A DNA stretch of 64,000 nt, from positions 1 to 64,000 of IMG/VR virus record IMGVR_UViG_3300030406_003150; one strand, 5' to 3'. The translations under genes and the position numbers were made by a program. The notes beneath the pieces are model-generated. The model made no database searches. It saw nothing but the letters and a program-made list of their open reading frames with translations, and had not been told where the DNA came from. Shown piece by piece: positions 33,383-42,817 of this stretch (position 1 is its first letter; each line of letters opens with the position of its first letter). The stretch is from a virus.

Positions 33383-33456
33383 TACACCCGACAGGATTCG
33401 AACCTGTGACCGTCTGCTTAGAAGGCAGATGCTCTATCCAACTGAGCTACGAGTGC
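33383..33456 (-). tRNA. tRNA-Arg(UCU)
   Basis: Full cloverleaf GCACTCG...TCTGC-CTTCTAA-GCAGA...GGTTCGAATCC...CGGGTGT-A; CCA not encoded. Confidence 0.93.
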
Positions 33457-33791
33457 ATTCGCTCATGTGTTTTTTTACGATGGCAATTTGCACACCTTAT
33501 CTCACACTTTCTTATTTCGTCTTTTATTGTTTTTATGCTGTAATAGTTAGAAACCATATCAGCTATTGCCCTTCTCTTTTCTCCTTTTACGTGATCAAAC
33601 TCAAGGACCACTGGGTCTGACTCCCCGCAATCCACACAGCTGAACATTCTTTTTACTCGGTCTACAAAAGCTTTGTTCTTTTTTCTTTGCCTTCTGTTTC
33701 TAGCCGAGCTTCTAGAGATTATTTTCTCTTTGTTTTCTCGGTAGTGTTTAGCTGCCGCCTTAGCCTGATCTTTTTTGCTTTTGTATGGCAC
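33447..33791 (-). CDS. HNH endonuclease
   Basis: CVDC...LEFDH...CANCH zinc/HNH signature. Confidence 0.85.
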   Translation of the reverse strand: MPYKSKKDQAKAAAKHYRENKEKIISRSSARNRRQRKKNKAFVDRVKRMFSCVDCGESDPVVLEFDHVKGEKRRAIADMVSNYYSIKTIKDEIRKCEIRCANCHRKKTHERMHS

Positions 33792-33795
33792 CGTG

Positions 33796-33867
33796 TGCTC
33801 TCTATTGGATTCGAACCAATGACCTACGAATTATGAGTTCGCTGCTCTACCGCTGAGCTAAGAGAGC
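33796..33867 (-). tRNA. tRNA with CAU anticodon (Ile2 or elongator Met)
   Basis: GCTCTCT...GCGAA-CTCATAA-TTCGT...GGTTCGAATCC...AGAGAGC-A; lacks initiator features. Confidence 0.9.
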
Positions 33868-38508: not shown

Positions 38509-38539
38509 TTGACAAAGGTGTTTCGATTCCCTACCTTTG
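38509..38539 (+). promoter_or_regulatory. Early promoter P1, TTGACA-N17-TACCTTTG
   Basis: Bacteroidota -33/-7 consensus; near-copies at 39844 and 41768. Confidence 0.85.
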
Positions 38540-39197: not shown

Positions 39198-39209
39198 GCC
39201 TGTCGAATC

Positions 39210-39809
39210 ATGGTAAGTTTCAGCACACTACCGCTCGCTACAGTCACACGCCACACCAAGGCGTGGGCTGGGCGGGCATCCGATCACGAGCGCGAGGAAG
39301 GCTTGCGCTGGTACAAGGAAGCGATGGAATTCGCTGAATACCTGTCGATTACGTTCAACATCTCAAAGGTCGTAGCTGCGGGCGTGATAAGCGCCCTGAG
39401 CCCGAACAACAAGTGGGAGCGCAACAAAATCGATGCATTCAACCTGATTCAGGCATACGTAGACGGTCGCACGATGGATGATGTGAGCGTGTGTACGTAC
39501 ACGAACAACAAGCGCCGCGCGTGGGGCATCCTGAGCGGTGACGTGGAGATGCTACGCAAGGCACGCAAGACCCACGCATTTGCGCTGAATGTGGGTGCGA
39601 TGGATGAATCTGTCGTTACCATTGACAAGTGGATGCTCCGTGCGTTTGTGACTACGTCGCTCAAGCCCAAGGACGTGCCTACTACGTGTACTCCCGTGCA
39701 GTACGACCGTCTGAGCGCTCACTTCTGCAAGGTGGCGCGTGCTATGGGGTACAAGCCCTACGAGTTGCAGGCTATCATATGGGTCACCATTCGTAATCGA
39801 TGGCTCTGA
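39210..39809 (+). CDS. Phage protein, possibly HhH-glycosylase-like fold
   Basis: WY...ALSPNNKWERN...VTID.W...ELQAIIW pattern. Confidence 0.5.
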   Translation: MVSFSTLPLATVTRHTKAWAGRASDHEREEGLRWYKEAMEFAEYLSITFNISKVVAAGVISALSPNNKWERNKIDAFNLIQAYVDGRTMDDVSVCTYTNNKRRAWGILSGDVEMLRKARKTHAFALNVGAMDESVVTIDKWMLRAFVTTSLKPKDVPTTCTPVQYDRLSAHFCKVARAMGYKPYELQAIIWVTIRNRWL

Positions 39810-39843
39810 AACCCCAGTAAATGCTGGCAAATCGAAAATAAAT

Positions 39844-39874
39844 TTGACAACGCTGTTTGGATTCCTTATCTTTG
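39844..39874 (+). promoter_or_regulatory. Early promoter P2, TTGACA-N17-TATCTTTG
   Basis: Consensus match; similar to P1 and P3. Confidence 0.85.
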
Positions 39875-39903
39875 CAGTCCACGAAATCAAAATTCTCTTG
39901 CAT

Positions 39904-40143
39904 ATGGAAAACGCACCACGCTACTGCTCAATCACCAACGAACCTATGTGGGAAGGTTGGTACTTCGAAGGGATTGGGTTCTTCTACGTCAAGTACGAGA
40001 AGGATGCGCTCCGCATCTGCCAAGAACACGACTACGCCACGCTGGATGAGGCGTTCGATGACGAGTTCATGTACTGGACTGACTGGCACGACATCCCCAA
40101 GGACGAGTGGGACTTACCCACGAACCTACCCAAGGTACACTGA
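39904..40143 (+). CDS. 79-aa acidic/aromatic early protein (start MENAPRY)
   Basis: ATG after AATCAAAAT leader; stop codon lies in the hammerhead core. Confidence 0.7.
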   Translation: MENAPRYCSITNEPMWEGWYFEGIGFFYVKYEKDALRICQEHDYATLDEAFDDEFMYWTDWHDIPKDEWDLPTNLPKVH

Positions 40144-40183
40144 TGAGTCCTGAATGGACGAAACGCTGCGAAGCGTCTGTATC
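40134..40183 (+). ncRNA. Type I hammerhead ribozyme HH1, predicted cleavage after GUC (C40177)
   Basis: GGUACA-CUGAUGA-GUCC(UGAAU)GGAC-GAAA-CGCU(GCGA)AGCG-UC-UGUAUC: complete core with three stems. Confidence 0.93.
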
Positions 40184-40201
40184 AATCAAAATCTCTCACA
40201 C

Positions 40202-40453
40202 ATGAGCAAATACGAAAACGGCTACCTGCCTAAGATTGCCTACCACATGTTCAAGGGCAATCAAGACCGAGTTGATTACTTCGTTCATCGACAACTGACC
40301 ACGTACGGGCCAATCGAAGACCGCCAGCGCTGGTGGGTAATCGAGGAAGTCCACCGACTCCGAGAACAACAAGCGAAGCCTAAGACCTTCGAAGATGCAT
40401 TGGCACTCTGCCACAACAAAGACGAGGTGCTGGCTCAACTCAAAAACCTCTAA
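40202..40453 (+). CDS. 83-aa early protein bracketed by two hammerheads (start MSKYENG)
   Basis: ATG after AATCAAAATCTCTCACAC leader. Confidence 0.7.
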   Translation: MSKYENGYLPKIAYHMFKGNQDRVDYFVHRQLTTYGPIEDRQRWWVIEEVHRLREQQAKPKTFEDALALCHNKDEVLAQLKNL

Positions 40454-40503
40454 GGCACACTGACGAGGCTTGAATAGCCGAAACGCCGCGAGGCGTATGT
40501 GTC
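40454..40503 (+). ncRNA. Type I hammerhead ribozyme HH2, predicted cleavage after GUA (A40497)
   Basis: GGCACA-CUGACGA-GGCU(UGAAU)AGCC-GAAA-CGCC(GCGA)GGCG-UA-UGUGUC; four compensatory pair changes relative to HH1. Confidence 0.93.
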
Positions 40504-40522
40504 AAATCAAAATCATTACACT

Positions 40523-40822
40523 ATGCACACAAGCATTCCCCGTCTACGTGCCCTGCACATCGAGTTCTTCGGCCCTACCAACACGAAGGGCGCACGAGTC
40601 CGCATCAAGGACGAACGCAACAACGTCACCAAGTGGCTGGCATATGACTACGCTGTCGGAGATATCGTAGAGCAGTCGTATACGTACCTTGAGCAGCAGG
40701 GCGTAATCAAAGAGGGCACGGATATGTGGGGTGACAAGGACGTCTACCCGATGCTGATTCTGCACGACACACGCCGAGGCTACACGCTGGGCGTACCTAA
40801 CTTCGAAACCCCAATCAAATGA
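40523..40822 (+). CDS. 99-aa early protein (start MHTSIPR)
   Basis: GPTNTKGARVRI motif; leader motif upstream. Confidence 0.7.
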   Translation: MHTSIPRLRALHIEFFGPTNTKGARVRIKDERNNVTKWLAYDYAVGDIVEQSYTYLEQQGVIKEGTDMWGDKDVYPMLILHDTRRGYTLGVPNFETPIK

Positions 40823-40890
40823 GTACAGCAATCCTTTGTGCCTACGCTGTGGGCACGGTAATCGTTACAATTCAATCCCTGAAAAAATGA
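40819..40890 (+). CDS. 23-aa hydrophobic peptide MSTAILCAYAVGTVIVTIQSLKK
   Basis: ATGA overlaps with both neighbouring genes. Confidence 0.5.
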   Translation: MSTAILCAYAVGTVIVTIQSLKK

Positions 40891-41069
40891 TACGAAGCAC
40901 TTTCGACAAGTGGATACACAAAGGCGAGGTCATAGGCAGCGTGCGTTGTGTGAACTACGCTAAGATGGCTTTGGCTGTCTGGGCGCAAGGAAGGGACGCA
41001 GATGCCTTCGTATATCTGGACAAAGCAAAGCGAGAGTTTTACATCACGGCAGATGAACTGCCATTCTAA
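40887..41069 (+). CDS. 60-aa early protein
   Basis: ATGA-coupled start. Confidence 0.55.
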   Translation: MIRSTFDKWIHKGEVIGSVRCVNYAKMALAVWAQGRDADAFVYLDKAKREFYITADELPF

Positions 41070-41080
41070 ATCAAATCACA

Positions 41081-41371
41081 ATGAAAACACAACAACACAT
41101 TGACGCGCTGTACGAACGGCGCAAGACAGCAGGCGGATTCGAGCAGGCGTTGATCGACGCATACTTGCGAGCCGATGGCGGCAATACAAGAATTCTCGAA
41201 GAGGCTTTCAAGGGTACTCGGTTTGACCTGACTCCGAAACCCAAGTTCAACAGCGGCGTGGAGACGCTACGCAATGCTGCGTACTGGTCAGGGCATCGTG
41301 ACGAGTACCTGAACGACGACAAAACAGCCTACCAACTCATCGACGAATACCTGAATGAAAAAGAACAATGA
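41081..41371 (+). CDS. 96-aa early protein
   Basis: GGF..ALIDAY.RAD..N..IL..AF motif; leader motif. Confidence 0.65.
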   Translation: MKTQQHIDALYERRKTAGGFEQALIDAYLRADGGNTRILEEAFKGTRFDLTPKPKFNSGVETLRNAAYWSGHRDEYLNDDKTAYQLIDEYLNEKEQ

Positions 41372-41490
41372 GAGCAATGACGGACTTATGGAGAGAAGGG
41401 TACGACTACCCAAGCGATGACGATGATGCATATGAGTATGACATCATGGAGGAAGCAGACCGAGCATACGAATACGAAAACGATATATGA
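41368..41490 (+). CDS. 40-aa very acidic peptide
   Basis: MRAMTDLWREGYDYPSDDDDAYEYDIMEEADRAYEYENDI; ATGA coupling. Confidence 0.55.
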   Translation: MRAMTDLWREGYDYPSDDDDAYEYDIMEEADRAYEYENDI

Positions 41491-41491
41491 A

Positions 41492-41758
41492 ATGGAAACA
41501 AAATTCTTGAACGAACGATTACCCATCCGCATAGGCACCAAGGTCGTGTATCGCGGTGGCTTTGGCTTCGAAGGCCGCAAGGTGGCGCGAGTCACACACA
41601 TAGAGCAGACGTTCCACCCGAACGAGAAGTACGGACACGAGGTGGACGAGGTGACATACTCGCAAGACCATTACGTACTCAATCTGGATGACGGCCACTG
41701 GTGTTACTCCCACCAAGTCGATGGGGTCGTTGTAAATGACTGTGAATCAACCGATTAG
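41492..41758 (+). CDS. 88-aa early protein (start METKFL)
   Basis: ATG follows the previous stop by one base. Confidence 0.6.
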   Translation: METKFLNERLPIRIGTKVVYRGGFGFEGRKVARVTHIEQTFHPNEKYGHEVDEVTYSQDHYVLNLDDGHWCYSHQVDGVVVNDCESTD

Positions 41759-41767
41759 AAAAAAAAC

Positions 41768-41798
41768 TTGACAACGGCGTTTGAATGTCGTATCTTTG
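41768..41798 (+). promoter_or_regulatory. Early promoter P3, TTGACA-N17-TATCTTTG
   Basis: Consensus match with upstream A-tract. Confidence 0.85.
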
Positions 41799-41818
41799 CA
41801 TCGTCAATCGATTACTGG

Positions 41819-41882
41819 TTGAGCTGTCCACTCAAGGTGGTGTATGTACTCCGACACATACGGGGCGAAAGCCTCGGACAGC
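41819..41882 (+). ncRNA. Structured leader RNA (multi-branch), family unknown
   Basis: GCTGTCC/GGACAGC closing stem with GTATGT/ACATAC and GGGGC-GAAA-GCCTC arms. Confidence 0.55.
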
Positions 41883-41914
41883 CTTCCACAATCACAAATC
41901 AAAATCTCTAACAC

Positions 41915-42112: not shown

Positions 42113-42120
42113 TCACACAT

Positions 42121-42252
42121 AGCATTGACATATCCCGCATGAGGATGCGGTAAGGATGTGCCAAACCAACAAACGTTCCTTCTACCCGTTACCACGGGCT
42201 TATGGCAACGAGCGTGAGGGATGGCGGTGGTTCGATCCCACCCTATGCTACA
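42121..42252 (+). ncRNA. tRNA-like RNA: acceptor stem and canonical T-arm with non-canonical internal arms
   Basis: AGCATTG/CTATGCT stem (6 of 7 pairs), GGTGG-TTCGATC-CCACC T-arm, 3' A-CA like the two true tRNAs. Confidence 0.6.
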
Positions 42253-42258
42253 ACGGTA

Positions 42259-42299
42259 CTCACCATTAAATCTGGTAGGTGAGCTAAGTCGATACCAGG
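42259..42299 (+). ncRNA. Predicted H-type pseudoknot
   Basis: Stem 1 CTCACC/GGTGAG and stem 2 CTGGTA/TACCAG, interleaved. Confidence 0.5.
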
Positions 42300-42451
42300 A
42301 CCACTGAGCGACACGTTAAATCACCAGGAAGACCATTACCTGTGGTGTGAGCTATGGAATCATGAGGCTTGCACCTACGAGAGAGAAACTCTGCGTGGCG
42401 TGGATAGAAGGGATAAACAAAGCCGACCACATTAACTCAAAACTCTAACAC

Positions 42452-42598
42452 ATGAAAGACGAAATCATTGCCCGACTCGAATACTTCGAAGAAACCATTG
42501 CAGGTGAAATCGAAACTTGGCTAGACCCCGTGACGGGTGACTACTACCACGTACCTATAGAAATCGTGCGTGACTTTGACAACATCGAAAAACTCTAA
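42452..42598 (+). CDS. 48-aa acidic protein MKDEIIARLEY...
   Basis: Hand-translated; flanked by identical 20-nt leader repeats. Confidence 0.65.
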   Translation: MKDEIIARLEYFEETIAGEIETWLDPVTGDYYHVPIEIVRDFDNIEKL

Positions 42599-42601
42599 CA
42601 C

Positions 42602-42817
42602 ATGAAAGTACTCCAACCAACGTCAATAACTACAACAGGCACCCCAGTGAAGTGCCAAAGCATCTCAATCGACAGCAAAGAAATAGCAATCCTGTTCTTC
42701 GGAACACGAGAAGTGGACATCATCGCCGTCCCTGAAGCCCACATCCCTATTGGGGACGTGGACGAGTACCTCGAAGAACTCGGATACAACTTATCAGAAA
42801 TCCTTTACATGACATGA
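42602..42817 (+). CDS. 71-aa acidic early protein
   Basis: Leader repeat upstream. Confidence 0.6.
   Translation: MKVLQPTSITTTGTPVKCQSISIDSKEIAILFFGTREVDIIAVPEAHIPIGDVDEYLEELGYNLSEILYMT

Follow-up and report, generated by a model that had tools for sequence, protein, structure and literature searches.

The window analysed here is a stretch of 64,000 nt, the first 64 kb of a 78,121-bp IMG/VR virus record (IMGVR_UViG_3300030406_003150) that CheckV rates as complete. The encoded proteins include a portal, a large terminase, tail fibre proteins, a primase/helicase and three giant virion proteins, identifying the source as a tailed dsDNA phage. The phage was present in marine, seawater and estuary metagenome sequencing runs. 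It is a lytic-type marine phage, probably with a host in the Bacteroidota; this host assignment is based on the form of the promoters and on missing Shine-Dalgarno sites. The promoter form and the translation-start habits of the Bacteroidota are well established. A blastn search with positions 39200-41400 against 50,697 phage records gave zero matches. Two tRNA genes (33383-33867, minus strand; 71.8 and 74.5 bits) lie between the late and early arms, and a Plastid-ycf2 match on the reverse strand of one of them is spurious.

Two hammerhead motifs in the early operon

Small early-type genes fill the plus-strand arm of the genome from approximately 38.5 to 51 kb. Three of these genes (A, B, and C), two hammerhead motifs (HH1 and HH2), and the promoter upstream from them are the subject of this analysis (Table 1).

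Table 1. Positions in the window of the genes, promoter, hammerheads and derived segments.
Feature	Position	Strand	Description
Early promoter P2	39843..39874	+	From sequence and promoter scan; TTTG-N20-TAnnTTTG, alternatively TTGACA-N17-TATCTT
Gene A	39904..40143	+	79 aa; no known family
Absent DNA segment	40132..40451	+	320 bp: HH1, leader and gene B; defined by the X4 joint and alignment A4
Hammerhead HH1	40134..40183	+	Type I, open stem I; predicted cut after C40177
RNA between cuts	40178..40497	+	320 nt; derived from hammerhead anatomy, cleavage predicted
Gene B	40202..40453	+	83 aa; no known family; own TAA stop
Hammerhead HH2	40454..40503	+	Type I, wholly intergenic; predicted cut after A40497
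Leader and gene C	40498..40822	+	25-nt leader; gene C (99 aa) at 40523-40822

The promoter P2 is predicted to drive the series A-HH1-B-HH2-C, with transcription continuing to about 41758. Its motif is repeated at 41768 (P3), a TTGACA-type sequence of the same kin is near 38509, and the TTTG and TAnnTTTG parts are retained in relatives. The promoter/terminator scan found no plus-strand terminator from 39872 to 41768. Without a terminator between P2 and the next promoter, there would be one transcript of approximately 1.9 kb, and that transcript would be cut into three.

Most of the early genes have an A-rich leader that lacks a Shine-Dalgarno site and has the form AAUCAAAAUCUC..AC-AUG. The last codons of gene A make up the 5' strand of stem I of HH1, and the UGA stop codon of gene A is inside the CUGAUGA core. 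Genes A and B had zero matches in Pfam, PHROGs and the protein atlas, and in the same three collections gene C had only matches that were sub-threshold or unannotated. A hammerhead is present at only 2 of the approximately 8 junctions in the operon.

The two motifs have the anatomy of type I hammerhead ribozymes. Both have an open stem I of 6 bp, the core sequence CUGANGA, a 4-bp stem II with a UGAAU loop, GAAA, and a 5-bp stem III that is closed by a tetraloop and has an A-U pair at its core end. HH1 has the stem I strands GGUACA/UGUAUC, the core CUGAUGA...GAAA and the cleavage triplet GUC; HH2 has the stem I strands GGCACA/UGUGUC, the core CUGACGA and the cleavage triplet GUA. The three-way junction is the minimum-energy fold of each. 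Four compensatory pair changes separate HH1 from HH2 (stem I has one, stem II two and stem III one), and both contain C3 U4 G5 A6 N7 G8 A9, G12 A13 A14 and the pair A15.1-U16.1 of the core. The motif was found twice in the window, compared to 0.02 times per dinucleotide-shuffled window.

Rfam is a poor detector of this hammerhead design. At gathering thresholds, an Rfam search returned only the two tRNAs and no hammerhead. The model RF00163 (Hammerhead_1) gave 23.6 bits for HH1, below its gathering score of 34, and HH2 was unreported by Hammerhead_1, E-value thresholds included. The stem II loop and short stem III of the Rfam consensus are unlike this phage design.

We collected homologues with a pattern that fixed only the letters of the core and loop, and found 22 loci in IMG/VR. 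All three stems were recognized in 21 of the 22 by a script that takes structure into account, and additional nearby copies found with the script brought the total to about 50 hammerheads. In a gapless alignment of 23 phage homologues there were compensatory changes at 10 of the 15 base pairs, and 100% of the cells were paired, compared to only 23-40% in a control in which the pairing partners were slid; the script that collected the alignment set demanded partial pairing, and the initial pattern search did not. A custom covariance model, built from this same alignment, scored HH1 at 82.1 bits and HH2 at 82.9 bits, and found no third hammerhead in the 78-kb genome.

The conserved and variable positions are those expected of hammerheads. 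The columns of the catalytic core are invariant in the 23 homologues, and the cleavage position (position 17) is C or A in the relatives and never G, satisfying the NUH rule. The A on the 5' side and the A on the 3' side of the 6-bp stem I are also invariant in the alignment, as are U24 and U28 of loop II, and a tertiary contact between stem I and loop II is suggested. Position N7 of the HH1 core (40144) varied between U and C in all four sequencing runs. The cleavage nucleotide of HH2 (40497) varied between A and C, and the related contig L045 carries GUC. These natural variants appear to sit at positions that the ribozyme tolerates. The initial annotation had proposed two hammerheads at these positions, and the core, the fold, the covariation and the scores of 82-83 bits confirm them. 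By every criterion that can be applied to sequence both ribozymes are genuine, and they are predicted to be catalytic.

Other structured elements are found downstream. Immediately after P3 is a structured leader (41800-41895) with a 7-bp closing stem and two hairpins, one of which has a GAAA tetraloop; it had no match to the hammerhead covariance model and none in Rfam. A gene-free region of approximately 340 nt (42113-42451) contains a tRNA-like T-arm (GGUUCGAUCC, at approximately 42225-42245) and further predicted structure. Sequencing depth in the estuary run X4 peaks in this region (at approximately 1000), and several relatives have joints or replacements there (42122 to 42248 and 42253 to 42318).

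Presence and absence of gene B among relatives

The gain or loss of gene B as a DNA cassette is supported by close relatives of the phage. In a contig from the DNA run X4 (495 nt, depth of 7.2, approximately 97% identical), position 40131 is followed directly by 40452, and exactly 320 bp are missing. Three further contigs (L045, L046 and L048), found by scanning metagenome contigs for a pattern, have the promoter, gene A, one hammerhead and gene C, and also lack exactly 320 bp. Their proteins are 95-96% (gene A), 98-99% (gene C) and 96% (DUF7178) identical to those in the window. The lone hammerhead has the stems and loops of HH2, with the triplet GUC in L045 versus GUA in HH2. Gene A in these deletion forms ends ...K A H UGA, and the stop codon is again inside the ribozyme core. 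The initial annotation had proposed that the two ribozymes, as direct repeats in DNA, could allow gain or loss of the gene, with relatives that lack the gene and carry a single hammerhead as the sign to look for. L045, L046, L048 and the X4 contig are such relatives, and they support the proposal.

The breakpoints are within the sequence AAGG just 5' of both stem I strands and can be placed at 40132-40135 and 40452-40455. We considered whether AAGG could be a target-site duplication like that of a retrozyme and rejected this. The repeat is within the conserved 5' flank and the start of stem I, where the alignment has an invariant A immediately 5' of stem I and a nearly invariant first stem I base, and AAGG is therefore homology between the two repeats and not a duplication caused by insertion.

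Other relatives carry the same genes and hammerheads in different arrangements. L026 and L027 have the complete series A-HH1-B-HH2-C. L028 has a promoter, gene B, HH2 and gene C, without gene A and HH1, and in L042/L016 the pair B-HH2 is behind another promoter and ahead of a different gene. L025 and L043 have the order orf75, hairpin, B, HH2, orf72; L037 has this arrangement minus B, HH2 and one copy of the leader. In L033, A-HH1 is followed by a different gene, and L032 has gene A without any ribozyme. The more distant relatives thus also show gain or loss of such units, with breakpoints in the repeated leader. Gene B always has HH2 downstream (seven loci, with three different genes after it), and gene A is linked to HH1 in four contigs. 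By this distribution, each hammerhead is linked to its upstream gene, and the hammerhead-plus-leader module appears to behave as a recombination linker. L025 (positions 2925-2970) and L037 both have the hairpin between orf75 and the leader that follows. It is a perfect inverted repeat of approximately 19 bp whose loop is 3 nt, and it may act as a terminator or as a regulatory site of the hairpin type.

The end of gene B differs among the relatives. A search for homologues of gene B found 6 short relatives. The related proteins are 57-74 aa, with similarity confined to about the first 56 residues. In L025-L028 and L042 gene B terminates at a UGA inside the HH2 core. In the window, gene B has a C-terminal extension of 25 aa (75 nt; window 40370-40453) with its own TAA stop, and this extension was found only within the window's own 90%-identity cluster.

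A second cassette shows the same kind of presence and absence without ribozymes. A 48-aa gene (42439-42608) is located between identical 20-nt copies of the leader that have no ribozymes, and a contig from the DNA run X1 has a joint from 42442 to 42596 that skips 42443-42595 (153 bp). The small number of junctions with a hammerhead seems to fit a ribozyme that came with the cassette better than a need for cutting at every junction. Since hammerheads are at only 2 of approximately 8 junctions, general punctuation of the transcript is not needed in this operon.

Predicted roles of the hammerheads

The hammerheads found in other phages are placed similarly with respect to genes. Among the approximately 50 phage hammerheads that were scanned, the cut is usually approximately 18-30 nt before the ATG of an open reading frame of at least 30 aa, and the stop codon of the upstream open reading frame is often in stem I or the CUGA core. 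The distance from one cut to the next is often 190-580 nt, the length of one small gene, and there are arrays of 3 to 7 hammerheads per contig (e.g., L009, L019, L022 and L024).

Considering the observed ribozyme anatomy, covariation, operon context and natural presence or absence of the cassette, we think it probable that active hammerheads cut the early operon into single-gene messages and serve as a portable insulating linker, and that the excised RNA is mainly a linear mRNA. HH1 and HH2 are at the 3' ends of genes A and B, which open the early operon, and self-cleavage would split the P2 transcript into three pieces. The first would be the message for gene A, ending in the folded body of HH1 and a cyclic phosphate. 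The second would be a 320-nt message for gene B alone, with a 5'-OH and an unstructured leader of 24 nt. The third would begin 25 nt ahead of gene C, with gene C as the predicted first cistron of this downstream cleavage product. Each hammerhead would thus have two effects, giving the upstream gene a structured, protected 3' end and giving the downstream gene a standard short leader that is independent of the sequence upstream. Expression that is independent of the neighbours would make the gene-ribozyme-leader unit portable: the hammerhead plus leader would be a repeated intergenic linker, and recombination there would add or remove single genes and leave the neighbours undisturbed. We infer cleavage in vivo and the stabilizing and insulating effects, and also that gain and loss take place by homologous or microhomology recombination.

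It is improbable that the hammerheads are mainly DNA-level linker repeats or passengers, with little effect of cleavage on fitness, that are kept by hitch-hiking with mobile genes and by their overlap with the stop codons of the upstream genes. The hammerheads do travel with the upstream gene (A-HH1 in the four contigs and B-HH2 at the seven loci), most junctions in the operon are without a hammerhead, and ribozyme-free leader repeats also mediate gain and loss, as at the joint from 42442 to 42596. However, the core is invariant and the stems have been kept by compensatory changes across distant phages, a pattern indicating that selection acts on how the RNA folds and not on DNA homology. In addition, the polymorphisms are at tolerated positions, namely N7 (40144) and the cleavage position, which can be C or A.

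We also think it unlikely that the hammerheads are a switch coupled to translation, in which ribosomes ending the upstream gene would unfold the ribozyme and cleavage, which would decide what becomes of the message downstream, would report the level of upstream translation. A stop codon in the core or stem I recurs in many of the surveyed hammerheads, and the overlap is rebuilt in the deletion variant, in which gene A ends inside HH2. However, gene B in the window has its own TAA before HH2, indicating that the overlap is not required, and this compaction may merely reflect the tight packing of phage genes.

A third possibility, proposed in the initial annotation, concerns the RNA released by both cuts. 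The 320-nt RNA starts with UGUAUC; its 24-nt leader lacks a Shine-Dalgarno site and is followed by gene B and the whole body of HH2. This unit (40178-40497, with one 83-aa open reading frame at 40202-40453) is as the initial annotation described it. The expected ends are a 5'-OH and a 2',3'-cyclic phosphate. RtcB is known to join such ends. If the ends were joined, the junction would have the hybrid stem I GGCACA/UGUAUC, and the single mismatch (C-A) that had been described for this stem is correct.

It is very unlikely that the selected product is a circular mRNA, exonuclease-resistant and translatable, with ends joined by a host RtcB or by reversal of the hybrid hammerhead (the HH2 body plus UGUAUC). 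The chemistry of the ends suits RtcB, the enzyme exists in Bacteroides thetaiotaomicron (the control genome of our search), and the freed 5' UGUAUC can pair with the vacated GGCACA except at the C-A mismatch. Nonetheless, of the arrangements seen, just three (the window, L026 and L027) have a hammerhead immediately on each side of gene B. Selection therefore does not keep the double flanking; what is conserved is the ribozyme that follows the gene. A promoter precedes gene B in L028 and L042, and the message there would have a 5' triphosphate, which is unusable by RtcB. The open reading frame has a normal stop codon, so endless translation is not built in. The phage has no ligase of its own: there was no match to RtcB, RNA_ligase or RVT_1 in the 78-kb genome, and an RtcB supplied by the host is possible. 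Finally, Perreault et al. (2011, PMC3088659) sought circular or spliced products from three hammerhead arrays and found none.

The predicted structure of the 320-nt RNA also argues against a circle. The 5' end does not pair with the 3' end in the linear fold, where nucleotides 1-17 are unpaired. The circular fold is weaker than the linear fold (-81.2 versus -86.7 kcal/mol). The fold is neither rod-like nor one in which the ends pair, and extensive self-complementarity that unites the ends, as in retrozyme and viroid-like RNAs, was not found. Energies for the hybrid stem from ViennaRNA are unreliable with a non-canonical pair and were not used.

Junctions expected of a circle were not seen in the available contigs. 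The back-joint from 40497 to 40178 was not seen in contigs of the four sequencing runs, a comparison with low power, and the junction pattern (the HH2 body followed by UGUAUCAAU) had 0 matches in JGI metagenome contigs, which are mostly DNA assemblies and thus a weak test. The sole RNA-library run consisted of contigs only, with 6% of the sampled words and 7 contigs mapped, none of them on gene B. A single RNA-library contig over HH1 runs on into the leader of gene C. We rejected a circle as its source; it came from a relative without the cassette, and it may be DNA that was carried into the RNA library. Incidental circularization at a low level is possible.

Stem I is more uniform within contigs than between them. 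Per-site identity of stem I was 0.76-0.78 within a contig compared to 0.52 between contigs (L003-L050 plus window 40134-40503), in a small sample with no phylogenetic control. No such homogenization within contigs was seen for stem II, the upstream flank or the 12 leader nucleotides that come next. Strands from different ribozymes paired perfectly in 37 of 90 within-contig combinations, and cross-pairing of stem I strands had a mean of 5.06 of 6 within a genome compared to 3.5 between contigs. A uniform stem I may be selected because frequent DNA crossovers inside the type I ribozyme make chimeric stems. Another possibility is that hybrid ribozymes have a part in ligation at the RNA level. The uniformity would permit hybrid ribozymes and in that respect favors a circle, but we consider it highly improbable that it has been selected for the sake of pairing between any ribozyme body and any downstream strand, leading to RNA circularization or splicing between cassettes.

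Comparison with known systems

The layout of the locus resembles that of hammerhead arrays in prophages. Perreault et al. [quoted passage not shown] They proposed that the arrays process mRNAs into single-gene messages, and considered circular or spliced products and detected neither. In both cases hammerheads in the same orientation in a phage transcript flank one small, variable gene. The locus described here differs in that it is in a lytic-type marine phage with a probable Bacteroidota host, in that the hammerheads have a uniform minimal type I design (6-bp stem I, 4-bp stem II and UGAAU) that is below the Rfam threshold, and in that a polymorphism of one versus two hammerheads among near-identical strains is documented.

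The closest precedent at the DNA level is the promoter-early stem-loop (PeSL) cassettes of T4-type phages (Arbiol et al. 2010, PMC2839356; Comeau et al. 2014, PMC4122927). In RB49, ORF192 is between two PeSL modules, and phi1 has a single module instead; recombination between PeSL modules adds or removes the gene, leaves its neighbours intact, and yields DNA mini-circles that were shown by inverse PCR (PMC2839356, PMC4122927). As with PeSL, two modules flank a gene in one phage and a close relative has a single module. The PeSL module is a promoter plus a terminator stem-loop and insulates transcriptionally, whereas the module of this phage is a self-cleaving ribozyme plus a leader and is predicted to insulate post-transcriptionally. 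The promoter/terminator scan found neither a promoter nor a terminator within the hammerhead-leader module.

Retrozymes and viroid-like circular RNAs with hammerheads (Cervera et al. 2016, PMC4918200; de la Pena et al. 2020, PMC7761336) are also similar in that direct-repeat hammerheads bracket an RNA of a few hundred nucleotides with ends that suit a tRNA-ligase or an RtcB-type enzyme. Those RNAs are non-coding, rod-like, eukaryotic, mobilized by reverse transcriptase and shown to be circular. In contrast, the 320-nt phage RNA is coding and has no rod-like fold, there is no reverse transcriptase in the genome, and the RNA is probably mainly linear.

The predicted effect on the downstream gene is similar to that of an engineered insulator. 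In insulators of the RiboJ type, a hammerhead is placed between a promoter and a ribosome-binding site. As with RiboJ, a cut just before the start of translation would leave the same short 5' leader whatever is upstream. Unlike RiboJ, the phage hammerheads are natural, are located between cistrons, and would also make the 3' end of the upstream message.

The layout of hammerheads around single phage genes has been known since 2011 and the gain from this analysis is incremental, with the polymorphism of one versus two hammerheads as a useful addition. Near-identical marine phages that differ by one gene-plus-hammerhead unit provide a natural comparison, and positions 39840-40600 are a defined construct for testing the circularization of phage messages that are flanked by ribozymes. 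The cassette polymorphism supports the view that the ribozyme plus leader is a portable insulator for swapping small early genes; at the RNA level, this module would correspond to the promoter-terminator cassettes that T4-type phages have.
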